This document shows, in pieces, positions 18,647-64,000 of a DNA stretch of 64,000 nt; the first letter of the stretch is position 1; the number at the start of each line of letters is the position of its first letter. This stretch comes from an uncultured bacterium (lineage in GTDB: Bacteria; Latescibacterota; MWCZ01), in the NCBI GenBank assembly GCA_964510105.1, contig CAZEAI010000001.1, positions 74,693 through 138,692 of the forward strand, written 5' to 3'. Both the position numbers and the translations under genes were made by a program. Below the pieces are notes generated by a model. It worked only from the letters and a program-made list of their open reading frames with translations, searched no databases and was not told where the DNA came from.

Positions 18647-18732
18647 GTTATGTTGCCTTTCGTGCGATTTGGATGGCGTGTGTATGCTGAACAACCTCGC
18701 CCACGGCTCAAGCCGCGGGCTACATGCTGCGA

Positions 18733-18841: not shown

Positions 18842-18851
18842 GGGCGACGAA

Positions 18852-21233: not shown

Positions 21234-21328
21234 GGGGTCTCCCCGCGAGCGGTTTCGGACCGGCGGTCTGCATGAATGTACCGATCAGCGGTGGAAATGT
21301 ACGGCGACGCGCCTGGTACCGAAAGGAT

Positions 21329-21366
21329 GTAGGGGCCGGCGGGGCGAACACGGGGCTCGCCCCTAC
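21329..21366 (-). terminator. Putative terminator hairpin downstream of the PhyH-family gene
   Basis: GTAGGGGC...GCCCCTAC 8-bp stem enclosing a GC-rich inner hairpin; followed, in minus-strand sense, by AUCCUUUCGG. Confidence 0.35.
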
Positions 21367-21385
21367 GACATCGACCATCGCCGAT

Positions 21386-22165: not shown

Positions 22166-22336
22166 CGTGTATCCCTTGAGCGCATGGGGTAGGAGCGTAG
22201 CGTATCGGGATACAAAGATGGAAAGAATGAGCGAGCAGTCAATAAACGAGTGGCGATGCGGCGTTCGTGCTGTCTCGGGAGCGAGGTCGGGGATGTGGTG
22301 GCACTGTCACCGTGTTTGCGCCCTCTCTGGCCGAAT

Positions 22337-23017: not shown

Positions 23018-23114
23018 GGAGTTATCCCCCTTGTTCTGATCGGCAGCTAGGAAGTATCCGTATGTCTCCGACGGAACAGTAGTAGGCCGCTTCACTGAGC
23101 GCAACAGCCCGCCC

Positions 23115-24074: not shown

Positions 24075-24307
24075 CGGGGTGCCTGCGCTCCGGCGTAACG
24101 GGTATCGAGGGCTACCGACCGACGAAGATACGATGGGCCTGCCGGTCGGAGGAACCCTTGGTACGTTCACAGGCCGAAGCTAGTGTACCGGAGCCGGCAT
24201 CACGCGTCGCGACCGCCGTCCCTCCGAACGAGGTGGCGAGTCGCATGCGCAGCACCACCAGCCACGCAGCGATCGTCGTTCTGAGTGAAGCGAAGAATCT
24301 CTCGCGC

Positions 24308-26810: not shown

Positions 26811-26823
26811 CCGGGAGGCTCCC

Positions 26824-29205
26824 GTGGCGAATCGAGTAGAGATCAACGAGGGAGACACCGGCGGCAGCACGATTGCCGTCGCCGGACTTGCCACCGCGCT
26901 GGGCCCGCTCCATCGGCGGGTCACCATCGACGGCGGCGAGCACTGCCTCTCGACGATTACCCGGGATGCCGAAGACACTCCGCGCGGCGAGCGGATCGAA
27001 TACCGCGGTCCGGGCTCTCCCGTGCGACTCGTGGAGTTTCGCTCGCCGCTGGACGACGGCCTCCGCAGCGAATTCCTGCTGGTGAACGATTCACCGAAAC
27101 GCCTCGTGCTGAACTCCGTCGAGCTGCTCGGATTGGACGCGGTCGGCTGCGTCGGATTCGACTCGGGGGCATCCCGCCTTCGCGCGCTCGAACAGGGGGC
27201 GTACTGGGGCCACGTCGTCGACTTCGCACCCGAATCCGGCGAGCGCGACGGCGCATCCGACCTCGTATGGGTCCTCGCCGACGAAGCAAGCGGCGCATCG
27301 ATGCTTGTAGGATTCGAGACGGCGCACCGCTGGAAGGGCACGATCCAGACGCGCGTCGTTGGTGAGGAACTCGCGGCGTTATCCGTTGGCTTCGACGGCG
27401 GCGACACAGCCATCGAGCCGCGAGCGACGGTGCAACTCGAGGACTTGCTGATACTCGCCGGCGACGACCCGCTGGACCTGCTGGATCGGTACGGCGAGAC
27501 CACCCGCGCGCGCCACCAGCCTGATATCCTCGCCGAGTCGCCCGTCACGTGGTGCTCATGGTACCCGCACCGCCTCGGCGTCACTCACGAACGGGTGATG
27601 CGAAACGCGCGCGTCGCCGCCGAACGCCTCAAGCCGCTCGGACTCTCGACGATGCTGGTCGACCTGGGCTGGCAGGAGGGGTGGCTGCCGAGCATCTTCG
27701 ACGAGAAGGACGAGTTCCCCGGCGGCCTGCGGGCACTTGCGGACGACCTCGCCGAACTCGGACTCGACCTGGGAGTCTGGTCCGCGCCGACCTCCATCAG
27801 CGCGCACGACCCGGTCGCACAGGAGCGCCCCGAATGGCTCGTCCCCGGCGAGGACGGGTCGCCACGAGAGGCGGGGACATGGTTCTGGGCGCCGCACGGC
27901 CCCATTCACATCCTCGACCTGACGCATCCCGGCGCACGCGGGTGGCTACGCGAGCGCATCGCACTGCTGGCGGAGCGAGGCTGCCGGTATTTCAAAGGCG
28001 ACTTCGTCGGGAACATCCAATCGGGCGACGCGAAGCGACGGCACGACGACTCCATCGTCGGAGGCGGCGGGCTGGAAACGGGGCACATCGCCGCGCGAAT
28101 CTTCATGGACGCCCTCCGCGAACACCGGCCGGACGCGCTCGTGCTGTCGTGCGGCGGCCCGGAGCTGCCCGGCCCCAGCGCCTCGAACCTGCTCTACTCG
28201 TGCGACGACACCGGCAACACCGGCTACGTCGGCTGGGAGCTTCTGAGGCGAACGCAGCTCTCCATCGCGACGCACCTGTTCAAGCACCGTCGCTGGGGCG
28301 TCATTCAGCCGTCATGCATGAGCACCGGCCTGCCCGGCACGATCGACGAAGCGCGCGTCAGAGCCACGACGGCGTTCATGTCGGGCGGCCAGATCGACAT
28401 CGGCGACGATCTGACGAAACTGCCCGAGGACCGCTGGCGTATCCTCACCGCGACGTTGCCTCCGTACGGCAAAGCAGCCCGACCCATCGATCTGTTCACG
28501 CCGATCCAGCGCGCGCGCGGCGGCTACAGCACGGCCACGGTCGGGACGGGGATCGATCTGGCGGGTGTGCCTCCGGCGCCGCCGGCATCGGTGTGGGCGC
28601 TGCCCATCGACGCGGGGTGGGATTCCTGGACACTCGTCGCCGTGTTCAGCTATGATCTTCCGGACATCGCGGGCGACCGTGGTGAGGCCCAACTCGATAC
28701 GTTCTTCCTGCCCGTCGAGCGCCTGGGACTTCCGCCGCGAGACGATCTCTGGGCATACGAGTTCTGGTCCGGCCAGTTCTCCGGAAATCTTCCCGCCGAT
28801 CCACCACCGATGCCGGACTACCAGCATCCCGGCGACATGCAGTCGCTTGTTGCGCGACCGGACTCCGGCACGCTCGCGGTGAGCTTCTTCGGACCGGGCG
28901 TGAAGCTGCTCGCCGTGCGACGCGCTCCGGATCATCCCTGGGTCGCCGGAACGGACTTCCACCAGTCGTGCGGCTTCGAACTCGCGGATGTGCGATGGGA
29001 GCCGGGTACAGGCACACTCTCCGGCAGTATCGACCGTCCCGCCGGCACATGTGGAGCTATCGCGCTGGCGGGGTTCGGAGCATCGAACCCGCACGCCACT
29101 GTCAACGGCAGCCCGGCGTCTGCCCGGACGGGATCGGGCGGTTCACTGGTCGTACCGGTCTCCGTCGAATCCGAAGGAACGCTCTGGGAGGTCCGGTTCG
29201 ACTGA
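26824..29205 (+). CDS. Glycoside hydrolase, clan GH-D (GH36-like alpha-galactosidase family candidate)
   Basis: TIM-barrel entry motif TWCSWY, MLVDLGWQ (DDGW-like), and KxD nucleophile-like RYFKGDF; N-terminal beta-sandwich of about 230 aa; 793 aa. Confidence 0.5.
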   Translation: MANRVEINEGDTGGSTIAVAGLATALGPLHRRVTIDGGEHCLSTITRDAEDTPRGERIEYRGPGSPVRLVEFRSPLDDGLRSEFLLVNDSPKRLVLNSVELLGLDAVGCVGFDSGASRLRALEQGAYWGHVVDFAPESGERDGASDLVWVLADEASGASMLVGFETAHRWKGTIQTRVVGEELAALSVGFDGGDTAIEPRATVQLEDLLILAGDDPLDLLDRYGETTRARHQPDILAESPVTWCSWYPHRLGVTHERVMRNARVAAERLKPLGLSTMLVDLGWQEGWLPSIFDEKDEFPGGLRALADDLAELGLDLGVWSAPTSISAHDPVAQERPEWLVPGEDGSPREAGTWFWAPHGPIHILDLTHPGARGWLRERIALLAERGCRYFKGDFVGNIQSGDAKRRHDDSIVGGGGLETGHIAARIFMDALREHRPDALVLSCGGPELPGPSASNLLYSCDDTGNTGYVGWELLRRTQLSIATHLFKHRRWGVIQPSCMSTGLPGTIDEARVRATTAFMSGGQIDIGDDLTKLPEDRWRILTATLPPYGKAARPIDLFTPIQRARGGYSTATVGTGIDLAGVPPAPPASVWALPIDAGWDSWTLVAVFSYDLPDIAGDRGEAQLDTFFLPVERLGLPPRDDLWAYEFWSGQFSGNLPADPPPMPDYQHPGDMQSLVARPDSGTLAVSFFGPGVKLLAVRRAPDHPWVAGTDFHQSCGFELADVRWEPGTGTLSGSIDRPAGTCGAIALAGFGASNPHATVNGSPASARTGSGGSLVVPVSVESEGTLWEVRFD

Positions 29206-29213
29206 ATCGGGTC

Positions 29214-30287
29214 TTACAGTCCGATAGCGCGGGCCGGTCCCATCTCCAGCGCGTGCCGGAAGACCGCGTCCACCACGGTGAGCGTAGCGAGGGCCTCGTC
29301 AGGCGTCGGGCTCTCCGGTATGCCTTCGGCGACGCTGCGCAGGTAATGCGTGATCTCGCGCCTGAACGCCCACTCGGGCGGCGATTCGACCACCTCTCGA
29401 CGTCCTTCCCGCCCACGGTAGATCTCAATCGTTCCCGGAACGTTTCTGTGAAGTGCGGGGGGCGACGAGAACCGCAGCCATCCGCCCTCGTAGTGCAGTT
29501 CGATCCATTCCTCCCATACGCCCGGCTGCGCGGGCCCGTCCACCAGCACCGCCCGGGCCCCGGCCCAATCGAGCATGACCACCGAGGCCGGATCGGGCTC
29601 CGGATGCGACGTGATTACGCCGGTTGGCGGACCGATCCAGAATGAGATGAGATCGAGCGCGTGGGACGTGTAGTTGTTGAACCATGCCCATGGCCCGTGC
29701 AGATGACCCGGTAGCCACTCCGGCCACTTGTAGGCTGACGCTTCCTCCGGCTGGCTGTCGCCTGCGGACATGATCCCGTCCGGACGGCATTGCCAATCGC
29801 CACCGAGCGACTGGTAGCGAATCAGCCGGAGCCGCCCCATCTCGCCGCTTTCCGACCATCCCCGCACGATGTCGCGCACCTGCTCGGCCGCCGGGTCGTG
29901 ACGCCGCTGGAACGCGAGCTGCAACCGGACACCGGAACGTTTCGCCGTGTCGATGATCGCTCGCCCGTCCTCAAGGGTCGTCGCCAGAGGCTTCTCCATG
30001 AAGACGTGCTTGCCGGCGGTCATCGCGGCGATCGACAGCTCGCGATGGACCGGATCGGGCACGCTGAGCACCAGCGCATCGACGGATTCGCCGGAGAGCA
30101 TGTCCTCAAGCGATGAGTACACGGCGGGGATGTGGTAGCGACTCGCCACGAGCCCGGCTGTCTCAACGCGAGCGTCCGCCAGGGCAACGACTCGGCAGCG
30201 CTCATCCTCCGCAAGCAGGTTTGGGATGTGCGCACGCTGGGACATAAGCCCCGCTCCCACGACGCCAATTCTCACGAGATCTTCCAT
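29214..30287 (-). CDS. Gfo/Idh/MocA-family NAD(P)-dependent oxidoreductase
   Basis: IGVVGAGLMSQRAHIPNL Rossmann start and EKPLA motif. Confidence 0.8.
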   Translation of the reverse strand: MEDLVRIGVVGAGLMSQRAHIPNLLAEDERCRVVALADARVETAGLVASRYHIPAVYSSLEDMLSGESVDALVLSVPDPVHRELSIAAMTAGKHVFMEKPLATTLEDGRAIIDTAKRSGVRLQLAFQRRHDPAAEQVRDIVRGWSESGEMGRLRLIRYQSLGGDWQCRPDGIMSAGDSQPEEASAYKWPEWLPGHLHGPWAWFNNYTSHALDLISFWIGPPTGVITSHPEPDPASVVMLDWAGARAVLVDGPAQPGVWEEWIELHYEGGWLRFSSPPALHRNVPGTIEIYRGREGRREVVESPPEWAFRREITHYLRSVAEGIPESPTPDEALATLTVVDAVFRHALEMGPARAIGL

Positions 30288-30473
30288 GGTCTTCCTTGCC
30301 GGTTCGCGTGTATCGATGACATCGCCTTAGGCCGGGCGAGCGGCGGCGAGCCCCTGGGGCGCTCGTCGGTTGCAACATACGGCGCACGTTGCGAGTCTCT
30401 AAAACACTGAGCGCACGTCGGCAACCTCTACTGGCAACACCCGGGATTCCGCCGAATTCGATCAAGGAAGCAT

Positions 30474-41892: not shown

Positions 41893-42096
41893 TCAGGCTG
41901 CCTCCATGAATTCTTGACCGGCGACTCATGTTCCGCTGCCCCTGAAACAGGTCTCGTGCGGCGCGAGGTTCCATCGCGCGTTCGGCGTGCTTCGGGTTGA
42001 CCCGCGAATCGGAGGTCGGAATACTTCTACGCGAACCTCGACGGCGCTCGCCCGAGCCCCGTCGGCGTCGCACCCGAACACCTGGAGGAACTCCCC

Positions 42097-43152
42097 ATGA
42101 GCGACAGACTGCGTGTGGCCGTCACCGGCGCAGGCGGCGAGGCCCGTTGGTATATGGACCGGTACGCGAACTCCGAAATCGCCGACCTCGTGCTCGTGCA
42201 GGATATCGACGAGGAGAAGGCGCGGGAGCAGGGCGAACGTTTCGGCGTCCCGTGGACGACTGAATTCGACGACCTGCTGGCTGACGGCATCGACGTCGTG
42301 GATGTCAGCACGCCGAACCATCTGCACGCCGATCAGACATCCGCCGCATTCGACGCGGGCAAGCACGTCATCTGCCAGAAGCCGATGGCGCCGACGGTCG
42401 CCGAGTGCGACCGCATGATCGCGGCCTCGGAGACGACCGGCCTGACGCTCGGCATCTATATGGGATCGCTCAGCTCGCCGCTCTTCCACGAACTGCGCGA
42501 GATGGCGCGGGCGGGGATATTTGGTATCGTATCATCGACGAGCAGTCGTTCCGCGCACCGAGGCGGCTACGAGGCGCCGGACCGGTCTGCGTGGCGGGGC
42601 TCACTGGAGAAGACCGGCGGTGGCGCGTTCATCCAGCTTGCGATACACCCGGTGAACCTGCTCCAATGGGTGCTGGACGACGAGATCGTGGAAGTCACCG
42701 CTCGATCGACGAATCGGCTTTGCCAACACTCCATCGGCGGCGACGACCTGACGCACGCGGTGGCCGAGTATGCCAGCGGAGCATACGGAACGTTCGAAGC
42801 AGGCTACGCCGCGGAGGGCGGCCTGCTGTCGTTCCACGGAACGAAGGGATCGTTCGTGCAGACCGCCGGTATGACGCTGCTCTGGTCGGAGCTTCCGTGG
42901 GAGGGCGAAATCATCTCCTACACGCCGAAGCCCGGCAAAGAGATGACGGTCCTGGACTCGGCGGAGCTCGGTAAGCGCCAGGGCCCGCTGGGAGATCGGT
43001 ACGACCAACATGAAGCGTTCCTCCGCGCGGTGTTGAAGGGAGAGCAGGCGCCCGTGCCCGGCTCCGTTGGCCGGCGCGACGTCGCCATCAGCAAGGCCGT
43101 GTACCATAGCGCCGAGACGGACTCCAGCGTGCGAGTCGAGGACATGACGTGA
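42097..43152 (+). CDS. Gfo/Idh/MocA-family oxidoreductase
   Basis: LRVAVTGAGG Rossmann start and CQKPMA (EKP-like) motif. Confidence 0.8.
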   Translation: MSDRLRVAVTGAGGEARWYMDRYANSEIADLVLVQDIDEEKAREQGERFGVPWTTEFDDLLADGIDVVDVSTPNHLHADQTSAAFDAGKHVICQKPMAPTVAECDRMIAASETTGLTLGIYMGSLSSPLFHELREMARAGIFGIVSSTSSRSAHRGGYEAPDRSAWRGSLEKTGGGAFIQLAIHPVNLLQWVLDDEIVEVTARSTNRLCQHSIGGDDLTHAVAEYASGAYGTFEAGYAAEGGLLSFHGTKGSFVQTAGMTLLWSELPWEGEIISYTPKPGKEMTVLDSAELGKRQGPLGDRYDQHEAFLRAVLKGEQAPVPGSVGRRDVAISKAVYHSAETDSSVRVEDMT

Positions 43153-51104: not shown

Positions 51105-52085
51105 CTAGTCGCGGCCGTCCGATTCAAGATTGAGCCACGCGCACTCGGCGTCGCTGAGCTTGATCGACAACGCGGCATCGTTCGCGACAAGCTCGTCGCG
51201 GTTCGCCGCACCGACGATTGGATACGTGTTCATCGAACCCGCCAGCACGTATGCCATCGCCATCTGCGGGACGGTACAACCACGTTCGCCCGCAAGCTCC
51301 TCCACACGGTCGAGTCGTTCGACGTTGGACTCGTGGAGGTACGCGCGCGTCGCCGCGCCGTCGAGCAGATCCGCCTTCGACTCCAGGTCCGCCCGCCCGA
51401 AGCGTCCCGAGAAAAACCCGCGTCCGAGGCTGGACCAAGCAAGCACCGGGAGGCCGTCATCCGCATACCACGCACGCGCTTCGGCGTTCTCCGGGCCGCT
51501 GAGCGTTACGCTGCCGCTGTTGGCTCCCCACGGGTCCTCCACCTGTTCGGCGAGGCCGTAGTTCGGGCTACTGGCGGCGAATGGCGCTCGGCCATTGGCG
51601 AGTGCGTAGTCGTTGGCCGCCTGAACCCGAACATGCGTCCAGTTCGACCCGCCGTACGACGCGATTCGCCCTGCCTGCAAGTGCTCCCACAGCGCATCCA
51701 CGATCTCGCCGACCGGCACGTCGGGATCGTCGCGATGCAGCAGGTAGATGTCTATACTATCGGTCTGCAGCCGCGCGAGGGAATCCAGCAGGTCCGCGCC
51801 GATGTCGTAAGGCGTCACGCGCTTACGGTCGCCGTTGGGATGCGCGCCTTTCGACTCAACGACGACACTGTCGCGGACGCCGCGATCGCGCATCCAGTCG
51901 CCGATGCACCGCTCCGAATCGCCTCCCGCGTACACATGCGCCGTATCCAGCGCGGTGAATCCCAGCTCCAGCGCGTCGTCCAGGAGGCGATAGCTGCGCT
52001 CGCGCTCCTCAGTGGTGACGATCATCGTGCCGAGCATCAGACGCGCGACAGGGATGCGAACCCCTTCGATGGTACCGTAGATCAT
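51105..52085 (-). CDS. Aldo/keto reductase
   Basis: LDTAHVYAGG, SIDIYLLHRDD and the C-terminal AKR signature. Confidence 0.8.
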   Translation of the reverse strand: MIYGTIEGVRIPVARLMLGTMIVTTEERERSYRLLDDALELGFTALDTAHVYAGGDSERCIGDWMRDRGVRDSVVVESKGAHPNGDRKRVTPYDIGADLLDSLARLQTDSIDIYLLHRDDPDVPVGEIVDALWEHLQAGRIASYGGSNWTHVRVQAANDYALANGRAPFAASSPNYGLAEQVEDPWGANSGSVTLSGPENAEARAWYADDGLPVLAWSSLGRGFFSGRFGRADLESKADLLDGAATRAYLHESNVERLDRVEELAGERGCTVPQMAMAYVLAGSMNTYPIVGAANRDELVANDAALSIKLSDAECAWLNLESDGRD

Positions 52086-52095
52086 GCTCCTGCCC

Positions 52096-53079
52096 CTATT
52101 CGAACGGGTATTCGAGGTTCCACTGGGCGCGGACCCAGTCGAGTGTCTTCATAATCGACAGCGTCTCGTCGAGCGGCAGGACATCGCTTTCCGGCTTTCC
52201 CGCGCGGAGGCATGTGCCTACTTCTTCCGCCTCGTGCGTGTAGCCGTTGCCCTTGAACGGAATGTCGAGCGTCTCTTCCTTGTCGCCGCGAACGACGGTG
52301 AGCTTCTCCGAGTGCCAGAACGCGTGATGGACGGTGATATATCCTTCGGTGCCGAAAATCTGCGCGACGTGGGGCGTCGTCGTCCTGGTGGCGCACGTGA
52401 GCAGCGCCATGCGATCGCCGCCGTAGCTCATGACCATCCCGGCCTGTTCGTCGACACCGGTCTGCCCGAAATCGGCCAGAGAGACGACGTTCAGAGGAGC
52501 GTTCTTCATGATCATCCGGGCGAACGAGATGACGTAGATGCCGATGTCGAGCAGGCCGCCACCACCGAGTTCCGGCTTGAACAGGCGACTCTCAGAGTCG
52601 AAACCGGCGCGGAAGCAGAAGTCCGCCTTCACCATCTTGACGTCGCCGATCTCGCCCGCGTCGATGATCTCGCGCACCTTCACGATTGCGGGGATGAATC
52701 GCGTCCACATCGCCTCGAGGAGGAACAGCTTCTTCATCCGCGCGAACTCGATGACCTCGCGCGCTTCGTTGGCGTTCACAGTGAACGGCTTCTCACAGAG
52801 CACGGCCTTGCCGCCCTCCAGACACGTGATCGCGTCGCGCTTGTGCATGGGATGCGGCGTCGCAACGTAGATGGCGTCCACCTCCGGATCGCCCGCCAGC
52901 GCTTCGTACGACGCGTGGCAGTTCGGCACGTCGAACTCGTTGCCGAATGCGTCGGCCGCTTCCTGCGTCCGCGATCCGACGGATACCAGCTTCGCGTCGT
53001 CGGCATCGACGAGTCCGCGCGCAAACTGCTTCGCGATATTCCCCGTGCTCAGGATTCCCCACCGTATCGTATCGGGCAT
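52096..53079 (-). CDS. Gfo/Idh/MocA-family oxidoreductase
   Basis: IRWGILSTGNIA Rossmann start and CEKPF motif; 10-bp gap to the AKR gene (operon). Confidence 0.8.
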   Translation of the reverse strand: MPDTIRWGILSTGNIAKQFARGLVDADDAKLVSVGSRTQEAADAFGNEFDVPNCHASYEALAGDPEVDAIYVATPHPMHKRDAITCLEGGKAVLCEKPFTVNANEAREVIEFARMKKLFLLEAMWTRFIPAIVKVREIIDAGEIGDVKMVKADFCFRAGFDSESRLFKPELGGGGLLDIGIYVISFARMIMKNAPLNVVSLADFGQTGVDEQAGMVMSYGGDRMALLTCATRTTTPHVAQIFGTEGYITVHHAFWHSEKLTVVRGDKEETLDIPFKGNGYTHEAEEVGTCLRAGKPESDVLPLDETLSIMKTLDWVRAQWNLEYPFE

Positions 53080-53267
53080 AACGGTTCTCCTCGATATTCA
53101 GTTGTCACCGGGTTCCCAAAATGGAACTGTGAAGTTCGCCGGAGCCGAGTACCGGGGCAATGGTGTGCGCTGCACAGCAGGGCAACGGTGTGTTGACCCG
53201 CACGTCGGCGCTCGGCATCATCACAGCATCCTGAGACGCTCGACATGCCTCGATTGGAGTCCGCCCG

Positions 53268-56000
53268 ATGCGCTCGTTCGCCAACATCCCGACTCTCGTC
53301 GTCCTGTGCAATCTCTTCTCGTGCGCCACCGTGCTGGAGGCACCCGCCGTGAACGCCCCCATTCAGACCACCCACCCGCTCATGCCGGGCATTCGTTCGG
53401 CGGAGATCGCGAAGGCCGACTGGCCGCGAACGCTCCACGACAAGCAACTCACCGGGTTCTCGCCGCTCACGCTCGGGATGGACGAAACGCCGGAAATCTG
53501 GCAGACGATCGACGTGGGCGGAACGTTCGGGTGGGCGGAAACCGTCGCGCGCGCCGACGGAAGCTCCGCGCTACTCGTCGACGACGGACGGCTGACGCTC
53601 TACGACTTCGGAGACGGGCACATCGTATGGCGGGCGGAGGCATCGGGCAGTCTCGTCCATTTCGGCGACATACGCGGAGCAGGACGCTTCGAGGGACTCT
53701 TCACCAGCGGCAACGAGATGTTCCTCGTCGACGGCGCGACGGGCGAGGTGACATGGCGCCACGCATACGATCCGCCGCACGTCCACCTGCGCGCGCGGGT
53801 CGCGGACGTGCTGCCCGACGAACCGGGCCTGGAGGTCGCGGTATTCGAGCAATATGGCGACTCCGGCCGGCTGCTGGCATTCCCGGCAGAAGGCGCGCCG
53901 CGGGAGGTGTGGCGCCGCGTCGTCATCACGAACGACGAGTGGCCCGTCCGCGCCGACCACGGATGCGACGTCGAGTTCGACTTCTCGAACCCCGATCGGC
54001 CGCTGATCTGGTATGTGCGCCACCACCGCTGCCAGTCGTTCGACGCCCGCACCGGAGAGGAGACGGGGCGGCTGCTGTATGAGCTTGGCGGCGGAATCCG
54101 TCGCAACTACGGGCCGTGGCGCATCGCGACCGGCGCGGACGGCCTGCGGTACATCGTCGTCGTGAGCGAGATGGTGCAAACGCACGTGCACGCGATCCGC
54201 ATGCACCCGGACGGCACGCCGGAACTCGCGTGGGAGCGATACTACGGCGAGGTGTACGTCGTGCCGGGCGTCGCGACGAAACTCATCGCCGTCGCGGACG
54301 TAGATGGCGACGGCGCCGACGAAGTCGTATACAACGCCCGCGACCCCGAGAACGACTTCCGCGCGTTCGTCCGCGTGCGCGACGTGGCCACGGGCGAGGT
54401 GAAGCACGTACTGGCCGACCACTGGTGCTCCGGCCACGCGCCGGACGTCGGCCCGGCCAGACGGCACGTGTTCTACGTGCATCCCGCCCCCAACGGCGCG
54501 ACTCCGGAACAGGGGCCGCTTGCGCTTGTGGCGTTCACGCCGGACGGCGTCGATACGTTGCGCTCGTTCGCGTTTGCCCGACCGTGGGGGGTCACGACGA
54601 CCCCCGGCGCGAGTGGGAACGACCTGCTCGTCCGGACTATCGACGGGAGTGAGCCGGGCCTGCTCCGGTTGGCGGGCGACGATCTGCGCACACTCGAACG
54701 GCGGAGCGACGGCTCGCTGCTCAACTCACCAATCGCGGCGCTGGCCTCGAGCGACGACGAACCGCGCGCGGCGACTAGCACGAAGCTCTGCACCTGGTCG
54801 GGCGACGCCATTCGCGACCTGGATCTCGCGGGAGGACCGGCTCCGACTCTGAGCGCGGCGGACCTCGACGGCGACGGCTCAGCCGAACTCGTCGCGCATG
54901 TGCCAAGCGACGAGTTCCGCGTCTGGAGCCTCGGTGACAGCGAAGCGCGCGAGGCATTGTCCGGGCAGTTCCTCGGCGAGACCTCCCGCTACAGCCCGCT
55001 GCTCTACGACGTTGATGGCGACGGGCAGCTTGAGATCATCGTGCCGGGCAGCACCAAGCGCGGCGAGCTGGCGGTCCGGGCAACTCGCGCTGACGGTGAG
55101 TTGCTTTGGGAGTCCATCCTGCCGCACTCCACCACGGACGATGGCGGGAAGGCTGTCGCGTGGAATGCGGGCGAGTTCCTGCGAGCGCCTGACGGCGCTC
55201 GGGCGGGAGTCGCGATCACTGTGTACAGCACGCGCAGGACGATGGAAGGCACGTTCATGCTCGACGGCGCGACGGGCGAAGTGCTCTGGTACCGCGACCT
55301 CTACCGCGACGGCGGGAACATTCGCGGCTACCGGCCGGTGGGAATCCCCGGCGCATTCGACTGGGACGGCGACGGCGCCGAGGAGATCGCGTGGGACATG
55401 TACAGCTACATGGCGTTCCTGCGCGGCGACGGCGAGTTCTCGGCGATCTTCGGCGGCCCGAACGTGAACTCCGACGACCCCGTGCCCGCGATCCTGCTCT
55501 ACGACGGCTTCACGCCCATCTACCGTGACGCCGACGCCGAACGTCCGCACTGGTTCGTGCACCACGGACACGGACGCTTCGGTCTCGTCGGACCGGACCC
55601 GCGCGAGGGCATATGGTGGGAAGACCACGGCTACGACACACCTGACCGCATCGGCTTCATCGACGTTGACGGAGACGGCGTGATGGAGGTCGGCTACGCG
55701 ATCCGCAACAGCACCACGTTCCTGTGCCGCGACCTCTGGACGGGCGACGTGAAGTGGGAGATCGAACTGCCCTCCGCGCCATCCGGGCCCGTCATCACCG
55801 CCGACGTGGACGGAGACGGGCGTGGCGAGTTCCTCGTCGACAGGTGGTGCATCGGCACGAACGCCGACGGTGTCGGCGAGGTGCGGTGGGGGTCGCCGGT
55901 GGCGTTTGGCTGGGCCGTCATCGCGGACTTCGACGGCGACGGCGTCGGGGAGATCGCGTGTCCCGGTCAGGGCCGGATCACCGTGCTGAAGGGGCGGTAG
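53268..56000 (+). CDS. FG-GAP/VCBS-repeat beta-propeller secreted protein
   Basis: Signal peptide; many DxDGDGxxE Ca-binding-like repeats (DVDGDGADEVV, DLDGDGSAELV, DVDGDGQLEII, DWDGDGAEEIA, DVDGDGVMEV, DVDGDGRGEF, DFDGDGVGEI). Confidence 0.6.
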   Translation: MRSFANIPTLVVLCNLFSCATVLEAPAVNAPIQTTHPLMPGIRSAEIAKADWPRTLHDKQLTGFSPLTLGMDETPEIWQTIDVGGTFGWAETVARADGSSALLVDDGRLTLYDFGDGHIVWRAEASGSLVHFGDIRGAGRFEGLFTSGNEMFLVDGATGEVTWRHAYDPPHVHLRARVADVLPDEPGLEVAVFEQYGDSGRLLAFPAEGAPREVWRRVVITNDEWPVRADHGCDVEFDFSNPDRPLIWYVRHHRCQSFDARTGEETGRLLYELGGGIRRNYGPWRIATGADGLRYIVVVSEMVQTHVHAIRMHPDGTPELAWERYYGEVYVVPGVATKLIAVADVDGDGADEVVYNARDPENDFRAFVRVRDVATGEVKHVLADHWCSGHAPDVGPARRHVFYVHPAPNGATPEQGPLALVAFTPDGVDTLRSFAFARPWGVTTTPGASGNDLLVRTIDGSEPGLLRLAGDDLRTLERRSDGSLLNSPIAALASSDDEPRAATSTKLCTWSGDAIRDLDLAGGPAPTLSAADLDGDGSAELVAHVPSDEFRVWSLGDSEAREALSGQFLGETSRYSPLLYDVDGDGQLEIIVPGSTKRGELAVRATRADGELLWESILPHSTTDDGGKAVAWNAGEFLRAPDGARAGVAITVYSTRRTMEGTFMLDGATGEVLWYRDLYRDGGNIRGYRPVGIPGAFDWDGDGAEEIAWDMYSYMAFLRGDGEFSAIFGGPNVNSDDPVPAILLYDGFTPIYRDADAERPHWFVHHGHGRFGLVGPDPREGIWWEDHGYDTPDRIGFIDVDGDGVMEVGYAIRNSTTFLCRDLWTGDVKWEIELPSAPSGPVITADVDGDGRGEFLVDRWCIGTNADGVGEVRWGSPVAFGWAVIADFDGDGVGEIACPGQGRITVLKGR

Positions 56001-58931: not shown

Positions 58932-61394
58932 TCACCCCAGCGGCACGCGCACCTCCGGCGCGTTGGCCGCCTGAACGATCAGGTCGCCGGAATCGCGCGT
59001 GACGATGTCCATCGACCGTGGCTCGCCCGGCAGCAGGTCGACGAAATTGTCCGAGTAACGCGCCACCGGGTCCGCCACCCGTACGGACACGAAGTGCGCG
59101 TACGCGTCGCTTTCCAGCGTGACTCGCACCGCGCCCTCACCGCTGCGCTCGACCTCGACGGCGATGCGCGCGTGCGGCAGCGACCAGTCCCGTCGCATCG
59201 CGGCATGGTGGACACGCTCGCTGACGATATCTCCGCACCGCAATTCGGAGCACAGGAACTCCCGCTCCGGCGATACGATCCGTAGTTCTTCAGCCATCTC
59301 CGGGAGTAGTTGCGTGGACGCATTCGCGCGTAGCGCGACGGGCACGGACATTTCACCGAGAAGCGCGCCATCGTGGCTGATCCGGCGCACGCGCAGCAGA
59401 CCCTCCACGTCTTCCAATCGGTCGCTGATGCCCCAGAACGACGGATTCCGCCCGTCGCCGTAGAACATGCCCAGCACAGGAGCATGGGCTCGCGCAACCC
59501 AGAAATGCGCCGCCTTCGGACGGCCGTAGAAGTCCACAAGGCTGAACGTCACCGCGGGCCACGGCTCGTTGTACTGCCAGATGAGCGATCCGCTCGTGCC
59601 GAACATCTTCCGCCGATACGACTCGACCGCGTACCGCATGAGCGTCGCCTGCATCTCCTGGGTCAGCGCGATGAACTCGTCGACCGTGTCGGGCTCGCCG
59701 AACTCCGGCAGCACCGCCTTCATCCAGTCGCACGTGCCGTGATGGAAGTCCCACACGCTGTGCAGGAACCCGTTACGGTCCCACTGGAATCCAGGCGATA
59801 TCATCTCGTCGACGGTCTCGCGAGCCGGCACGGAGCGGAAGCCGTACTCGCTGCTGAACCGTGGCGCGCTGGAGTCGTACTTACGCCAGTCCGGCAGATC
59901 GTACCAGTCGTGGAAATCGCCTTCCGTCAACGACATCGTCGCCGCGCCGCCGAACGGGCTGCCCGGCCACCACGGTATGTCCGGCGAGAGCCTCCCGACG
60001 ACGTCCGGCAGCAGGTCCTCATAGATCCGCGCGCCGAAGTGCCGTTCGGCCTTCTTGTACCACTCGTAGCCGCCCGCCCACGTATCCTGACACTCGTTCT
60101 CGCCGCACCACAGCACAATCGAGGGATGGGAGCGCAGGCGCAGCACCGCCTCCTCGGCTTCGCGCCGGGCGTTCTCCATGAACACCGGGTCGTCGTCCGG
60201 ATACATCGCGCAGGCATACATGAAGTCCTGCCACACCATGATCCCAAGCTCGTCGCACCGCTCGTAGAACTCGTCCGATTCGTACGTGCCGCCTCCCCAG
60301 ACGCGCAGCATGTTGAAATGGGCGTCGTGCGCGAGGTCGAGCAAGTGGCGGTAGTGATCCGGCGCAGCATCGAGAGTGAGCGAGTTGGAGGGCACCCAGT
60401 TCGCACCACGGGCGAACACATCGACGCCGTTGATGCAGAAGGTGAAGCGGTCGTTCTGCTTCAGCTCGATGGTGCGCACACCGAATCGCAGCGAGCGGCG
60501 GTCGGTCTCCACGCCGTCGCGCGAGACGCTTGCACTGAGCGTGTAGAGATGCGGCTCGCCCATCGGACGCGGATACCAGAGTCGAGCATCCGGGATATCC
60601 ACCTCCACGGTCAGCGGCAGATCCGTGGCGACATCGCGATCGGACTGCCACACGGCCGGTCCGTCGGGCGTCTCGTGGATGGAGAGGCTCAGCCGCGCGG
60701 GTTCCGACGATGCACTCGCCGCCTGCGGCGTGACGCTCAACAGCAGCTTCGCCGTGCCGCCATCGACCGCCTGCGTACGAACGGCCAGGTCGCGAATGGT
60801 CGTGCCGCGATGGCACAGCAGCGAGACAGGTCGCCACAGCCCGATGGGAAGCAGCCTCGGCGCGAAGTCCCAACCGAACGACATCTGGCAGAGGCGGACA
60901 AACGAGCGGACAGCATCGCCGGTAGCGCCGATGTCGCTCCGAAGACGCTTCTGCATCTCCTCGATCCGCAAGCTGCACTCAACGACGACAACGTTCATCC
61001 CGCGTCGATTGATACGAGACGTAACATCCACGTGGTGAGCGTGTTGGGCATTGTCCGTGTAGCCGACGGGGAAGCCGTTGAGCCACACCGTCGCGAACAG
61101 GCTCACGCCCTCCAGCAGCAGCTCGTATCGATCGGCGTCCGCCTCGTCTGGTGGCAACTCGAATTCGTTGCGGTAGAGCCACGTCTTGTTCTCGTACTTA
61201 CGGAACGCATCGGCCTGCTGATCTCGCCAAGGCGAAGGCGCCTTCCCGTGAGCGACCAGCGCCGCCTGCACGGTGGAGGGGGCTTCCAGCGACATCCAGT
61301 TGGGGCAGCCGCACCCGATATCGTGCATGTCCACGGGCCGGGCATCGTCCGCGGAGATGAGCCGCCAGCCGTCGAGCATGGGAATGCGAGTCAC
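58932..61394 (-). CDS. Glycoside hydrolase family 2 (beta-mannosidase-like)
   Basis: Acid/base motif LWCGENE and nucleophile motif FSSEYGFRS in the expected spacing; 820 aa, sugar-binding plus Ig-like plus TIM-barrel layout. Confidence 0.75.
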   Translation of the reverse strand: MTRIPMLDGWRLISADDARPVDMHDIGCGCPNWMSLEAPSTVQAALVAHGKAPSPWRDQQADAFRKYENKTWLYRNEFELPPDEADADRYELLLEGVSLFATVWLNGFPVGYTDNAQHAHHVDVTSRINRRGMNVVVVECSLRIEEMQKRLRSDIGATGDAVRSFVRLCQMSFGWDFAPRLLPIGLWRPVSLLCHRGTTIRDLAVRTQAVDGGTAKLLLSVTPQAASASSEPARLSLSIHETPDGPAVWQSDRDVATDLPLTVEVDIPDARLWYPRPMGEPHLYTLSASVSRDGVETDRRSLRFGVRTIELKQNDRFTFCINGVDVFARGANWVPSNSLTLDAAPDHYRHLLDLAHDAHFNMLRVWGGGTYESDEFYERCDELGIMVWQDFMYACAMYPDDDPVFMENARREAEEAVLRLRSHPSIVLWCGENECQDTWAGGYEWYKKAERHFGARIYEDLLPDVVGRLSPDIPWWPGSPFGGAATMSLTEGDFHDWYDLPDWRKYDSSAPRFSSEYGFRSVPARETVDEMISPGFQWDRNGFLHSVWDFHHGTCDWMKAVLPEFGEPDTVDEFIALTQEMQATLMRYAVESYRRKMFGTSGSLIWQYNEPWPAVTFSLVDFYGRPKAAHFWVARAHAPVLGMFYGDGRNPSFWGISDRLEDVEGLLRVRRISHDGALLGEMSVPVALRANASTQLLPEMAEELRIVSPEREFLCSELRCGDIVSERVHHAAMRRDWSLPHARIAVEVERSGEGAVRVTLESDAYAHFVSVRVADPVARYSDNFVDLLPGEPRSMDIVTRDSGDLIVQAANAPEVRVPLG

Positions 61395-61505
61395 GCGTTT
61401 GGTCTCCTCTGGCCGAACGCCGCCGTGGAACGGCGTGCATCGCGCCGTTTCGAATTCGCGTCATCACGTGCTACGCGCAGCGTGCTTCCCTCGGCGACGT
61501 GCCGC

Positions 61506-62399
61506 CTACGGCAGGTTGGCGGGGCTCAGCGCCGGGTTCCGCTGGAGCCGGTCCCACACCTCGCGAACGTAGCCGATCGATCGCCGGGCAGTCACGTACG
61601 GGTCGCCGCCAATGTCATACGCCTGCGTCACGATCGGGCCGTCGTAGCCACGCTTCCAGGCGTGGGCGAGCAGCGCGGCGATATCGATCACACCGGCGTC
61701 AATCGGCACCATGCGAAACGGCTCTGGCACGGGCACGGCATTGAGCAACGCAAGGTATCCGAGCCGGTCCATACCCGGCAGGTCGAACAGATCGTGCGTG
61801 TCCGGCGCGCCCTCGTGGAAGTGTGTGTGGAAGGACGCGAGACCGGGCCGGATGGTCGCGGCGCCGGCGTCCTCGATGATCCGCAGTTCGGCCTGCGGGG
61901 TGTCGACCATGAACCAGACATGGTTGTACAGATTGCCCTGCATTCCCCGGTCCGCGAGCATGCGGTCGACTTCGCGGACGATTGAGGCGGCCCGCTCCCA
62001 GTGCCGCGGCTCAGCGTTCACCGACCCGGACTCGTGAAACTCCGACGACGAGCCCGGCGGACAGCTTGAGATCGTGTAGTTCAGGAACGATCCCGGCGCG
62101 ATCGCCGTGAGCCGGTCAATCATTCCTGCCACACGGGTGAGTTCCTGAGCTACGATGCCCGTCTCGTCGTCGGTGATACCCTTGGACACGACGTACATGC
62201 CGAAGTGCGTCAGGTTGGTGGCTGCGACGGCCGCGCCTGCCTCCTCCCACGCCGCGTCCTCATCGGGCTCCATCTGGCGGAACTCAAACCCGTCGTACCC
62301 AAGGTCCTCCGCCATGGCGAATTTCGTCGCGAACGAGTAGTGACGACGGTGCATGTCGAAATGGTTGTTGAACAAAACGAGCGGGTTCGGAATGCTCAT
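61506..62399 (-). CDS. Xylose-isomerase-like TIM-barrel protein (sugar phosphate isomerase/epimerase family)
   Basis: About 300 aa AP-endonuclease-2/xylose-isomerase-like fold pattern (LGYDGFEF, metal-binding E/D/H candidates); start trimmed to MSIPNPL at 62399, overlapping the stop of the upstream Gfo/Idh/MocA gene. Confidence 0.65.
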   Translation of the reverse strand: MSIPNPLVLFNNHFDMHRRHYSFATKFAMAEDLGYDGFEFRQMEPDEDAAWEEAGAAVAATNLTHFGMYVVSKGITDDETGIVAQELTRVAGMIDRLTAIAPGSFLNYTISSCPPGSSSEFHESGSVNAEPRHWERAASIVREVDRMLADRGMQGNLYNHVWFMVDTPQAELRIIEDAGAATIRPGLASFHTHFHEGAPDTHDLFDLPGMDRLGYLALLNAVPVPEPFRMVPIDAGVIDIAALLAHAWKRGYDGPIVTQAYDIGGDPYVTARRSIGYVREVWDRLQRNPALSPANLP

Positions 62400-63523
62400 C
62401 AGAAGGTCCCCTGTGTGTGCGGCGATATGTCCTGGGCGGTGGCTGTTTCCGCGGAAGCTACCATTGCATCCATGACGGAATGAAGAAGAAGCTGCTGCTC
62501 GGGCGGAGCCGCGGGCAAGCGATCGTCCAGCACCGCACGGGCGAGATCGCGTATCGGGAAGTCGAGTGTGGCGCCCCAATCGAAGTCGTGTTCGAGCAAC
62601 TCGATTTCATCGAGGTCGGCCGTGCCGCGATACGCCGCGTGCCGTAGCCGGGCGGCCGACCCCCCCGGCAGCATGCCCGTGTCCACCCCGCCGGACGTGC
62701 CGCGAATCTCGACGCTGTGTCGCTCACTACTGTGCTCATCGGCCCGCCGCTCCCAGTGGATGGACAGGCCGTCGTCGCACAGTATCTCCGCGCTGAATCG
62801 CCCGTCGACATCGGGGGACGAGCAACCGCGTTCCGGAGTGAGCGGGAAGTAGGGTCCAAGCGTGGCGAAGACGCGTCGCGGAGTGAACAGTTCGCCCAGA
62901 ACGAAGCTGATCCAGTCGATGTCGTACGGCCCCCAGTCGTAGAGGATGCCGCCGCCGTTTGACTTCGCATCGCCACGCCACGCGGGGACGGTCGATCCAA
63001 CCGGTGGCGGTGCGGACACCGTCTGGAATCCGACGCGATAGACCGATCCGAGCGATCCGCCGCTGACGATTTCGCGGGCACGTCCGGCGGTATCAGCCTG
63101 CCGAAATCGCGAGGAGCAGCTTCCTACCTTGAGTTCGGGCCGCGCATTGGCGGCTGCGAGTACGTCCGCGGCCTCGGCGACGTTGAGCATGAACGGCTTC
63201 TCGCAGATGACGTGCTTGCCGGCGTCCAGTGCCTCCATGACCATCGGACGGTGCAGATACGGGGGCGTCGCGACGTAGACCGCATCGACGCTGGGATCTT
63301 CGAGGACACGTCGGTAGTCGCCGTGAGCCGCCTGCGCGCCGATCTGCGAGGCGAGTGTCTGCGCCGCTTTCTCGTCCACGTCGGCAACCGCGACGCCGGG
63401 AGTCGTTCCCGTTGAGGCGAACGTGCCCGCCACAATCCGGGCGATGCGACCTGCCCCTATGATGCCGAAACGCACTGCCTCCAAGCCCTGCTCCCCTGCC
63501 GCATGGCGGCGTGGACGTGTCAC
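62399..63523 (-). CDS. Gfo/Idh/MocA-family oxidoreductase (start uncertain; possible GTG at VRFGIIGAG)
   Basis: FGIIGAGRIA Rossmann motif and CEKPF motif. Confidence 0.75.
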   Translation of the reverse strand: MTRPRRHAAGEQGLEAVRFGIIGAGRIARIVAGTFASTGTTPGVAVADVDEKAAQTLASQIGAQAAHGDYRRVLEDPSVDAVYVATPPYLHRPMVMEALDAGKHVICEKPFMLNVAEAADVLAAANARPELKVGSCSSRFRQADTAGRAREIVSGGSLGSVYRVGFQTVSAPPPVGSTVPAWRGDAKSNGGGILYDWGPYDIDWISFVLGELFTPRRVFATLGPYFPLTPERGCSSPDVDGRFSAEILCDDGLSIHWERRADEHSSERHSVEIRGTSGGVDTGMLPGGSAARLRHAAYRGTADLDEIELLEHDFDWGATLDFPIRDLARAVLDDRLPAAPPEQQLLLHSVMDAMVASAETATAQDISPHTQGTF

Positions 63524-63578: not shown

Positions 63579-64000
63579 CTACTCGCCCGCCTCCTCGACG
63601 AGAATCGTCCGAAGCTCAGCACGAACCTCCGCCACCACGCCTTCATCGACGCCGCTCTCCAACACCCGCTCGATGAGCTGCTCTCGACGCCGCGCGAGGC
63701 GATCCGCCAGCTCGTCGTTGCCACGGTCGCGAGCCCGGTCGGCGGCGTTCAACACCATCCGCAGACGCGCGTCGTCCTCGATGCCCAGACGCAGCCCCTG
63801 CCACCGACGGCTTGGCACGGGTCCGGACGCGCCGGTGTAGACGAGCTCATAGTCGGTGTCGTTGGGATTTGGTCCCTGCCAGAAATCGGTCTGACGACCC
63901 GCGTAGGACCAGAATCCCAGACCCGTGAGTCTGAAACGTGGACCTTGCCAGATGGGCTCCCAGTAGTACGTCATGCGCCGTAGATCCTTGACGCCGCCGT
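63579..64000 (-). CDS. Hypothetical protein, C-terminal part only (gene enters from beyond the window end)
   Basis: Open minus-strand frame from the window edge down to the stop at 63579; no motif recognised. Confidence 0.3.
   Translation of the reverse strand, partial: GGVKDLRRMTYYWEPIWQGPRFRLTGLGFWSYAGRQTDFWQGPNPNDTDYELVYTGASGPVPSRRWQGLRLGIEDDARLRMVLNAADRARDRGNDELADRLARRREQLIERVLESGVDEGVVAEVRAELRTILVEEAGE

Follow-up and report, generated by a model that had tools for sequence, protein, structure and literature searches.

In the 64-kb stretch of DNA that was analysed (the window), the minus strand encodes a Gfo/Idh/MocA oxidoreductase (Gfo) and, directly downstream, a divergent xylose-isomerase-like TIM-barrel protein (TIM). 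The features at this locus are:

58932..61394, minus strand: GH2 beta-mannosidase-like gene (Pfam GH2 and mannosidase Ig domains; PDB 5n6u)
61506..62399, minus strand: divergent xylose-isomerase-like TIM-barrel gene (PF01261; 297 aa)
62397..62401, minus strand: TGATG stop/start overlap between the Gfo and TIM genes (read from the sequence)
62399..63523, minus strand: Gfo/Idh/MocA NAD(P)-dependent oxidoreductase gene (Pfam, orthologue alignment, profile search against the PDB, AF2/Foldseek)
63579..64000, minus strand: 3' end of a gene that lies upstream on the same strand and leaves the window (in-frame translation)

Gene organization and conservation of the pair

The TGA stop codon of the Gfo gene (62401-62399) and the ATG of the TIM gene (62399-62397) have one base in common (junction: TTCTGATGAGC), and a GGGGA motif lies approximately 10 nt 5' of this ATG; in the closest relatives of the pair, the two genes overlap by 4 nt. 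The TGATG overlap is consistent with translational coupling of Gfo and TIM. The initial annotation of the locus had described this overlap at 62399, as well as a GH2 gene on the same strand after a 111-bp gap, and both are borne out, with the GH2 gene opening at a GTG (61394). It had also claimed five Gfo/Idh/MocA genes in the window; a Pfam scan of the open reading frames finds four, because the gene at 52096 and the one paired with an aldo/keto reductase are the same gene, counted twice. In addition to the gene at 62399..63523, these are:

29214-30326, minus strand: Gfo/Idh/MocA gene
42001-43152, plus strand: Gfo/Idh/MocA gene
52096-53097, minus strand: Gfo/Idh/MocA gene, adjoining an aldo/keto reductase gene

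Gfo is encoded directly upstream of TIM in 30 of the 34 related genome loci whose sequence reaches far enough upstream; this adjacency is seen in the window's own lineage as well as in Opitutaceae and Planctomycetota, and the stop codon of the first gene often overlaps the start codon of the second. Conservation of the pair across genomes, initially proposed as a check, is beyond chance, and Gfo and TIM constitute a genuine functional unit. TIM relatives that are only ~23% identical to the protein in the window (L085, L087) are likewise preceded by a gene of the same Gfo subfamily (CSSRF...DWGPYD). Most relatives belong to Opitutaceae, with the gene order Gfo, TIM, MLE-type enolase-superfamily gene, and with GH38 alpha-mannosidase and heparinase II/III-like genes near the pair. 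In this lineage TIM is most tightly associated with the MLE-type gene (40/42), an indication that the substrate bears a carboxylate; no MLE-type gene was found in the window at E 1e-15. Four Opitutaceae-type loci retain TIM without a Gfo gene, so TIM is more than an accessory to Gfo. The related loci are rich in genes for carbohydrate-active enzymes, and two contigs (P0215 and P0003) each carry a second AP_endonuc_2 gene. The operon in the window contains no second TIM, DUF1080, hydratase, or DgpB-type small-subunit gene.

The GH2-type gene encodes a protein of 820 aa with no signal peptide evident by inspection. Its domain set (PF22666, PF00703, PF17753, PF17786, and PF02836) and its full-length similarity to characterised beta-mannosidases place it among these enzymes (best PDB match 5n6u, E 6.5e-123 over residues 32-791; BtMan2A 2je8, E 1.8e-106). 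The gap between the TIM and GH2 genes shows no terminator or promoter pattern (the RNA fold z of 0.66 is uninformative), and GH2 may be co-transcribed with Gfo-TIM. As a conserved partner of the pair, GH2 was rejected, given that it is a neighbour in none of 44 related loci. The gene at 63579..64000 has only four homologues among 5.8 billion proteins, and one of these four continues the protein on its N-terminal side; a heparinase II/III-like identity was considered and rejected, based on these few homologues, the lack of a Pfam match, and the lack of similarity to the Opitutaceae 785-aa protein.

The Gfo/Idh/MocA oxidoreductase

The Gfo reading frame (62399-63523) matches PF01408 at 89.3 bits (cut-off 24), PF22725 at 54 bits, and PF02894 at 31 bits, and has the hallmarks of the Gfo/Idh/MocA family: an N-terminal Rossmann domain, a C-terminal alpha/beta domain, and an EKP motif (E108-K109-P110) with the catalytic Lys. 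This motif is invariant in the orthologue alignment, as is a DWGxYD motif; in D196-x3-Y200, the fourth catalytic position is occupied by Tyr, where the usual residue is His. By inspection, Gfo has no evident signal peptide. The frame opens at GTG 63523; the true start is probably TTG 63484, giving 361 aa, because a database protein of this length (P0213, 361 aa) is 100% identical to Gfo from this codon, the start agrees with the N-termini of 22 Gfo orthologues, and GGGGAG lies 6 nt 5' of the TTG.

Judged from sequence and predicted structure, Gfo looks like a pyranose-ring dehydrogenase. The best match of a Gfo profile in the PDB is DgpA1 (9m3d), over the full length (E 3e-30). The AF2 model (pLDDT 90; structure prediction was run on database homologues) has levoglucosan dehydrogenase as its top Foldseek match (TM 0.86), with scyllo-inositol/L-glucose dehydrogenase, DgpA1, and GenD2/KanD2 as other structural neighbours. 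With the exception of the inositol/L-glucose enzyme, these neighbours oxidise C3 of a pyranose ring, and the original description of Gfo as a glycoside-type dehydrogenase is supported by them. The regiochemistry of Gfo is not fixed by its fold, because similarity across Gfo enzymes is too even (TM 0.75-0.86). No equivalog cut-off in NCBIfam is reached by Gfo, including those for TIGR04380 (IolG; 100 bits vs. 355), NF058561 (BT_2158; 41.6 vs. 750), NF058563 (BT_2159; 29.8 vs. 650), and NF052479 (LgdA, levoglucosan dehydrogenase; 80.2 vs. 650).

The TIM-barrel protein and its replaced metal site

TIM (297 aa) matches PF01261 ('xylose isomerase-like TIM barrel') and is predicted, in a confident model, to be a (beta/alpha)8 barrel. 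At the level of sequence it stands apart: phmmer against the PDB gives no matches at E<=1, the family profile gives only marginal PDB matches (QuiC1 and epimerases, E >= 0.012), and there is no NCBIfam match at E<=0.01, IolE (TIGR04379, cut-off 290 bits) included. The family is compact (14 clusters at 50% identity, at E<=1e-30 among 1.84 billion representatives), clearly set off from neighbouring families, and co-inherited with one Gfo subfamily. A wider clade (LYPH...HWY...Q...GGD) also lacks the metal tetrad, and occurs in contexts that include luciferase-like flavin oxidoreductases and LysR regulators; a metagenome scan of this clade gave mostly unrelated contexts, with one member (P0085) on a contig of 988 nt.

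Approximately 40 positions are invariant in the TIM alignment, in which sequences are 33-85% identical. The invariant polar residues include N12, E39, D77, E135, R136, Y158, H160, D166, H191, N220, D239, Q259, and D266, and in the model 11 of 21 map to the C-terminal ends of barrel strands (seven of the eight) or to positions just past them, i.e., the catalytic face of the TIM-barrel fold.

To our knowledge, all characterised relatives in the superfamily have a Glu(His)-Asp-His-Glu metal site, which is used for carbonyl polarisation. In TIM, four concordant alignments place Tyr158, Ala188, Ala217, and Gln259 at the canonical ligand positions: these align with E146, D179, H205, and E240 of YcjR (numbering checked), and the same replacement of the tetrad is found against 3vyl and 5zfs. 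The ligands were mapped via YcjR, ketose epimerases, and canonical intermediates; equivalence to the lyases is by topology. In 3-keto-glycoside eliminases the ligands are His (beta5), Asp (beta6), His (beta7), and Glu (beta8), and the Mn2+/Co2+ site binds the 3-keto group (PMC10628242; bioRxiv 10.1101/2024.03.25.586180). Only His160 is retained; this invariant residue of TIM aligns two residues past the first ligand position, and appears to correspond to the catalytic His of eliminases, which is found at this +2 position in AtOGE (His134) and PuCGE (His143) (PMC10628242), as is His180 of AL1 (bioRxiv 10.1101/2024.03.25.586180). The nearest canonical relatives (weakly IolE-like) likewise have His at +2; YcjR and ketose epimerases do not. 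The catalytic base of AL1 is a Glu on beta8 (E272), the position of which is occupied in TIM by Gln259.

Because the metal-binding residues of every characterised relative are missing, TIM is, on sequence grounds, an uncharacterised variant and not a recognisable glycoside-cleaving lyase. The comparison with 3-keto-glycoside lyases proposed in the initial annotation upholds the xylose-isomerase-like barrel fold; it does not bring TIM closer to the lyases, since the predicted fold lies at much the same distance from lyases as from epimerases and IolE, and the H/D/H/E or E/D/H/E positions are not retained. A role for TIM as a 3-keto-glycoside lyase is possible, but its metal site does not place it among these enzymes.

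Proposed role and relationship to known systems

We tentatively propose, with somewhat less than even confidence, a cytoplasmic two-enzyme module, by which a sugar or sugar derivative would be oxidised to a keto intermediate and then undergo beta-elimination by TIM. Based on family and fold, Gfo would use NAD+ to convert a secondary alcohol on the ring of a pyranoside-like substrate into a ketone, most plausibly at C3, with Lys109, Asp196, and Tyr200 as the catalytic set. TIM would deprotonate the acidified alpha position, probably through His160 (judged from alignments and strand positions), and Tyr158, His191, Asn220, and Gln259 would polarise the carbonyl instead of Mn2+/Co2+; the beta-substituent expelled would be an aglycone or neighbouring sugar, or a hydroxyl. 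The logic would be that of IolG/IolE, LgdA/LgdB1, and DgpA/DgpBC, with TIM as a variant that lacks the canonical metal site. More speculatively, the same Gfo, holding NADH, could reduce the hydrated product, thereby giving a redox-neutral cycle. Mannosidases recur beside the pair (GH2 in the window, GH38 in Opitutaceae), as do heparinase II/III-like proteins, and these neighbours suggest a mannose-containing or uronate-containing oligosaccharide fragment as the substrate.

Several observations run counter to elimination: the three or four metal ligands that bind the 3-keto group in known eliminases are all missing in TIM; TIM has Gln259 in place of the AL1 Glu base; the operon offers no hydratase gene; Gfo carries a Tyr at the position of the His in DgpA, YcjS, AL3, and AFR; and in Opitutaceae-type loci Gfo is absent four times, with the MLE-type gene the closer partner.

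Redox epimerisation or isomerisation of the YcjS/YcjR type, without bond cleavage, appears rather doubtful. Gfo would oxidise a ring hydroxyl, TIM would invert an adjacent centre (e.g., C2, manno <-> gluco, or C4) or shift the carbonyl, and Gfo would reduce the product, to leave an epimer of the sugar or glycoside. YcjR is ranked second by Foldseek for the TIM model; identity between the two proteins is 17%, with an hhalign probability of only 81%. In ketose 3-epimerases and YcjR, the roles of acid and base fall to the two Glu of the E-D-H-E metal site, and both are replaced in TIM, by Tyr158 and Gln259; further, a His at the position of His160 is typical of eliminases and dehydratases, not of ketose epimerases or YcjR.

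Breakdown of a cyclitol or polyol, as by IolG/IolE or MocA/MocC, in which an inositol- or opine-like dehydrogenase would be paired with an analogue of inosose dehydratase/isomerase that acts on a non-glycosidic substrate, is decidedly improbable: Gfo falls far below the IolG cut-off, TIGR04379 does not match TIM (which lacks the IolE metal ligands), no iolB/C/D/A-type (iolA/mmsA) genes occur among the window ORFs scanned with Pfam or in related loci, and the neighbours are glycoside hydrolases and lyase-like proteins. An inositol pathway had been named at the outset as the finding that would overturn the glycoside interpretation, and no such pathway is found. Very improbably, TIM does not enolise at all, and is a non-catalytic partner of Gfo (scaffold, chaperone, or regulator) or performs other chemistry, a reading with which the loss of all four canonical ligands and the quite different contexts of the wider LYPH clade agree, and against which stand the ~40 invariant positions, many polar and at the catalytic face as is typical of a working active site, and, for an accessory role, the four loci that keep TIM without Gfo.

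The preferred reading of oxidation followed by elimination can be carried further, although the extension is improbable: TIM would found a class of metal-independent keto-sugar eliminases, in which a Tyr/His/Gln/Asn network would polarise the 3-keto group instead of Mn2+/Co2+, and with a Tyr-type Gfo would make up a minimal two-protein, redox-neutral, non-hydrolytic glycosidase, used by PVC-group bacteria on mannose or uronate oligosaccharide fragments spared by ordinary glycoside hydrolases. The locus is a real, conserved, uncharacterised keto-sugar module. With respect to the 3-keto cleavage module originally suggested, the conserved pair and the pyranose-dehydrogenase-like Gfo are supported; the metal site and a conserved GH2 link are not, and the operon has no hydratase partner.

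Verrucomicrobiota, Planctomycetota, and Bacteroidota carry very many pairs of Gfo/Idh/MocA and xylose-isomerase-like genes, which are increasingly seen as routes of non-hydrolytic glycan breakdown; few have been assigned. The locus warns against annotating every such pair as a 3-keto-glycoside lyase system. If TIM is catalytic, it would represent a new way of performing enolisation chemistry on the xylose-isomerase-like scaffold, or a new reaction; because Horticoccus luteus, which is in culture, has a member of the family, this can be tested directly.

Among known systems, E. coli YcjS/YcjR (D-glucoside 3-dehydrogenase and 3-keto-glycoside 4-epimerase) likewise has a Gfo adjoining a xylose-isomerase-like TIM in a sugar-utilisation cluster, and YcjS is 32% identical to Gfo over the first 200 residues; YcjS differs by its D-x3-H motif, and the gene order and accompanying genes are unlike those in the window. 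IolG/IolE/IolI differ in that their curated models are not reached, other iol genes are absent, and the metal ligands are missing. To the eliminase systems of A. tumefaciens (AtOGE) and of Alistipes and Bacteroides thetaiotaomicron (AL1/BT1 with AL3/BT3), and to the C-glycoside deglycosidases (DgpA with DgpB/C; CarB/C), TIM has no sequence-level relationship, having Tyr/Ala/Ala/Gln in place of the H/D/H(/E) Mn2+/Co2+ site. In contrast to the eliminase systems, the operon in the window lacks a hydratase (AtHYD, AL2, LgdB2) or DgpB-like small subunit, and Gfo has Tyr rather than the His of their dehydrogenases as catalytic residue; the proteins of the pair are probably cytoplasmic, whereas the AL/BT system is periplasmic. 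The levoglucosan pathway (LgdA/LgdB1/LgdB2/LgdC) proceeds by oxidation and then elimination by a xylose-isomerase-like protein (PMC7676230), the same logic as proposed here, and the Gfo model resembles levoglucosan dehydrogenase more closely than any other structure; the unit in the window differs in being composed of a single TIM gene and a single Gfo gene.

Organisation of the locus

The oxidoreductase and TIM-barrel genes overlap on the minus strand, with a GH2 gene on the same strand.

Features of the locus (window coordinates)
63579-64000 (-), gene upstream of the oxidoreductase, continuing beyond the window edge
62399-63523 (-), Gfo/Idh/MocA oxidoreductase (Gfo)
61506-62399 (-), xylose-isomerase-like TIM-barrel protein (TIM), 297 aa
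58932-61394 (-), GH2 protein, 820 aa
58037-58909 (+), 290-aa ORF convergent with the GH2 gene across a 22-bp gap

As initially annotated, the last base of the Gfo TGA stop (62401-62399) is the first base of the TIM ATG (62399-62397), and the GH2 gene follows 111 bp after the end of the TIM ORF at 61506. The Gfo ORF encodes Rossmann and C-terminal domains (PF01408, 89 bits; PF22725; PF02894). Its true start is probably TTG 63484, giving a 361-aa product, because a 100% identical database protein has this length, the N-termini of 22 orthologues fall at this codon, and the motif GGGGAG precedes it by 6 nt. The TIM protein matches PF01261 ("xylose isomerase-like TIM barrel"; 58.7 bits). The GH2 protein has mannosidase-type Ig domains, and its top PDB matches are beta-mannosidases (5n6u, E 6.5e-123; BtMan2A, E 1.8e-106). 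Scanning the 111-bp gap gave neither a terminator nor a promoter pattern, which makes co-transcription of GH2 with the Gfo–TIM pair possible. By inspection, no obvious signal peptide is present in the Gfo, TIM or GH2 protein. The 290-aa ORF has faint PHP/histidinol-phosphatase-like similarity and no Pfam match. The C-terminal 139 aa of the gene at the window edge have no Pfam domain and only four homologues in 5.8 billion proteins; the homologue in L117 belongs to an assembly rich in frameshifted fragments.

Four Gfo/Idh/MocA genes are present in the window (at 29214, 42001, 52096, and 62399), rather than the five initially counted, the gene at 52096 being the one that adjoins the aldo/keto reductase.

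Other features of the window
16445-18784 (-), PFL-like glycyl-radical enzyme 1
18852-21284 (-), PFL-like glycyl-radical enzyme 2, in tandem with the first
21386-22306 (-), PhyH-family dioxygenase, after the glycyl-radical enzyme pair
23115-24179 (-), radical-SAM/ferredoxin-type activase
26716-29205, 829-aa product weakly matching melibiase (GH27/36-like)
29214-30326, Gfo/Idh/MocA gene, convergent with the ORF at 26716-29205
51105-52148 (-), aldo/keto reductase, ORF overlapping the Gfo gene at 52096-53097
52096-53097 (-), Gfo/Idh/MocA gene directly upstream of the aldo/keto reductase
53268-56000 (+), 910-aa FG-GAP/PQQ-like beta-propeller protein

The doubled glycyl-radical enzyme cluster (16445-24179, minus strand) is unusual. 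The propeller protein has an N-terminal hydrophobic leader (by inspection) and a weak lambda-carrageenase propeller match. Because a 1120-aa protein of homologous type adjoins the Gfo–TIM pair in two related JGI contigs, it may be part of the same glycan-utilisation system as the pair.

Conservation of the Gfo–TIM pair

The TIM protein family is small and tight: 62 homologues were matched in 5.8 billion proteins, mostly 53–64% identical and from Opitutaceae and Planctomycetota. Horticoccus luteus has orthologues of the pair. In a profile search of all 1.84 billion cluster representatives only 14 reached E<=1e-30, after which the score falls from 246 to 92 bits.

Among the 44 close genome loci, a window-type Gfo gene lies directly upstream of the TIM gene on the same strand in 30 of the 34 with enough upstream sequence, the TIM gene occurs without a Gfo gene in four, and a muconate-lactonizing-enzyme (MLE)-subgroup enolase-superfamily gene lies directly downstream in 40 of 42. 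Nearby genes encode a GH38 alpha-mannosidase (23 loci), a 785-aa heparinase II/III-like protein (20), and an SBP_bac_5 ABC importer (20); a GH2 relative was found near TIM in none of the 44. In the window's own lineage, where the TIM proteins are 81–85% identical and the Gfo–TIM overlap is 4 nt, no MLE gene was found beside the pair. On a related JGI contig encoding the database protein P0215 (Gfo, 69% identical), the operon runs AP_endonuc_2 – Hepar_II_III_C – Gfo – TIM, close to a GH98-type gene, a second AP_endonuc_2, and an FG-GAP/lambda-carrageenase-like propeller. From these counts and lineage loci, the Gfo–TIM pair is the conserved core, beside which GH2 occurs in a lineage-specific manner, and the general setting is glycan degradation.

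The closest PDB relatives of the MLE-type gene are muconate cycloisomerases, dipeptide epimerases, and N-acylamino-acid racemases. In Opitutaceae and Planctomycetota (loci L002-L042 and L074-L076; for example, L075:6865-10042 and L074:8001-10027) it often overlaps the TIM gene by 22 nt. This three-gene Gfo–TIM–MLE core is uncharacterised; its surroundings include a fused SBP_bac_5/permease ABC importer, GH38, the 785-aa heparinase II/III-like protein, PhyH, and AraC. The MLE-type partner and the peptide/opine-type importer, both missing from the window's lineage, hint at a carboxylate-bearing substrate, at least in Opitutaceae.

A remote TIM clade (33–35% identical among protein matches, 30–36% among genome loci) has a sole named member, from Rhodothermales, and its matching genome loci are from Bacteroidota. 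Its proteins bear twin-arginine-type leaders (RRxFxK by inspection). At L080:5351-10200 and L081:5417-8963, two loci of this clade, the TIM gene comes after a gene for an 840–870-aa DUF7133/HEAT/cytochrome-c protein; at L080 it is also followed by a Gfo gene whose product weakly matches a GH109 C-terminal domain. These features point to a periplasmic redox counterpart of the Gfo–TIM module.

Metal-site positions in the TIM protein

By sequence, the TIM protein matches nothing in the PDB at E<=1 and nothing in NCBIfam, and its family profile gives only marginal matches in the PDB. Its confident AlphaFold model (pLDDT 93.5, pTM 0.91) matches ketose 3-epimerases, YcjR, and IolE in Foldseek, at TM about 0.7 and 11–18% identity; these fold matches do not single out any one function.

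By topology, published 3-keto-glycoside eliminases carry metal ligands at the same positions as YcjR. In AtOGE the ligands are H132, D163, H189, and E233 and the base is H134 (PMC10628242), and AL1/BT1 coordinate Co2+ through H178, D211, and H237 and have H180 along with a Glu base (bioRxiv 10.1101/2024.03.25.586180). Four analyses place Tyr158, Ala188, Ala217, and Gln259 of the TIM protein at the YcjR ligands E146, D179, H205, and E240, whose numbering was verified: hhalign against YcjR (probability 81%, with E146 in a gap beside Tyr158); the family HMM against L-ribulose 3-epimerase 3vyl, covering the first three ligand positions; a MAFFT alignment in which canonical E-x-H...D...H...E relatives (database proteins P0091, P0101, and P0102) serve as the bridge; and a profile of the LYPH clade, a wider xylose-isomerase-like clade neighbouring the family (motifs LYPH...HWY...Q...GGD), against allulose epimerase 5zfs, which gave the same substitutions at equivalent positions of that sister clade. 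In the model, strands beta5 to beta8 have their C-terminal ends at these four positions.

Only His160, two positions past the first ligand, is retained; this column is His in >90% of aligned sequences, weakly IolE-like canonical relatives included and YcjR excepted. About 40 positions are invariant among family members 33–85% identical. By alignment and model, 11 of the 21 invariant polar residues (N12, E39, D77, Y158, H160, D166, T167, H191, N220, Q259, and D266) lie at the C-terminal end of one of seven barrel strands or just past it, which speaks for a functional but remodelled active site, whose geometry we infer, rather than a decayed one. E135, R136, and D239 also belong to the invariant residues. 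The initial reading as an oxidative (3-keto) glycoside cleavage module is partly supported: the Gfo–TIM pair is borne out, whereas the metal site that was proposed as a check is absent and the related loci do not share the association with GH2.

The xylose-isomerase-like barrels of the LYPH clade (P0080-P0097; L085-L116), which has no PDB or NCBIfam member, also lack the E-D-H-E tetrad. Most of their genes adjoin luciferase-like flavin oxidoreductases and LysR regulators; in 15 metagenome loci such an oxidoreductase lies beside the gene, often also with a LysR regulator. A Gfo of the same subfamily as in the window (CSSRF...DWGPYD) is again directly upstream in L085 and L087, where TIM is only ~23% identical to that of the window.

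The oxidoreductase and the proposed chemistry of the pair

An EKP motif and D196-W-G-x-Y200 are invariant in the Gfo orthologue alignment. Where DgpA, YcjS, and AFR carry His, the Gfo protein has Tyr200; Tyr at this catalytic position is also found in GFOR, KijD10, and dihydrodiol dehydrogenase. The best PDB match of the Gfo family profile is DgpA1 (9m3d; top-ranked full-length, E 3e-30), followed by AFR and DgpA 7xr9. Structures nearest the AlphaFold model (pLDDT 90.4) are levoglucosan dehydrogenase (TM 0.86), scyllo-inositol/L-glucose dehydrogenase, DgpA1, GenD2/KanD2, GFOR, and AFR, several of which catalyse oxidation at C3 of a pyranose ring; with so narrow a spread among them (TM 0.75–0.86, 19–24% identity), fold similarity does not fix the regiochemistry.

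Proton abstraction beside a carbonyl is the unifying chemistry of xylose-isomerase-like barrels, and the usual source of that carbonyl is the partner Gfo dehydrogenase. On this basis, the pair would act on a pyranoside-like substrate by oxidation followed by enolisation, the latter performed by the TIM protein without the canonical metal. As the outcome we tentatively favour elimination of a group (aglycone, sugar or hydroxyl) that is beta to the newly formed ketone, because His160 is a hallmark of eliminase/dehydratase branches (AtOGE, CGE, AL1, and IolE-like relatives) and both epimerase acid/base Glu residues are absent from the TIM protein. Redox epimerisation, as in YcjS/YcjR, is less likely; the fold ranking speaks for it, as does mannose as the product common to the GH38 and GH2 neighbours, and the loss of those Glu residues speaks against it. 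That the TIM protein is a metal-independent keto-sugar eliminase, and the pair a minimal two-protein non-hydrolytic glycosidase, is a further, improbable reading. The Gfo protein approaches none of the curated NCBIfam equivalogs (scores against cut-offs, in bits: IolG 100/355, LgdA 80/650, BT_2158 42/750, BT_2159 30/650). A cyclitol or opine route is very improbable, and the assignment to inositol catabolism, named in the initial annotation as what would refute its reading, is not borne out: the TIM protein has no match to the IolE model, and no iol genes occur among the Pfam-scanned ORFs of the window or in related loci. Least probable is a non-enolising or non-catalytic TIM protein, given the invariant polar residues at its strand ends.

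Judged by sequence membership and by the defining metal site, neither of which it shares, the Gfo–TIM pair belongs to none of DgpA/DgpBC, AL3/AL1, LgdA/LgdB1, YcjS/YcjR, and IolG/IolE, the systems of a Gfo protein and a xylose-isomerase-like TIM barrel that it would resemble in how it works.
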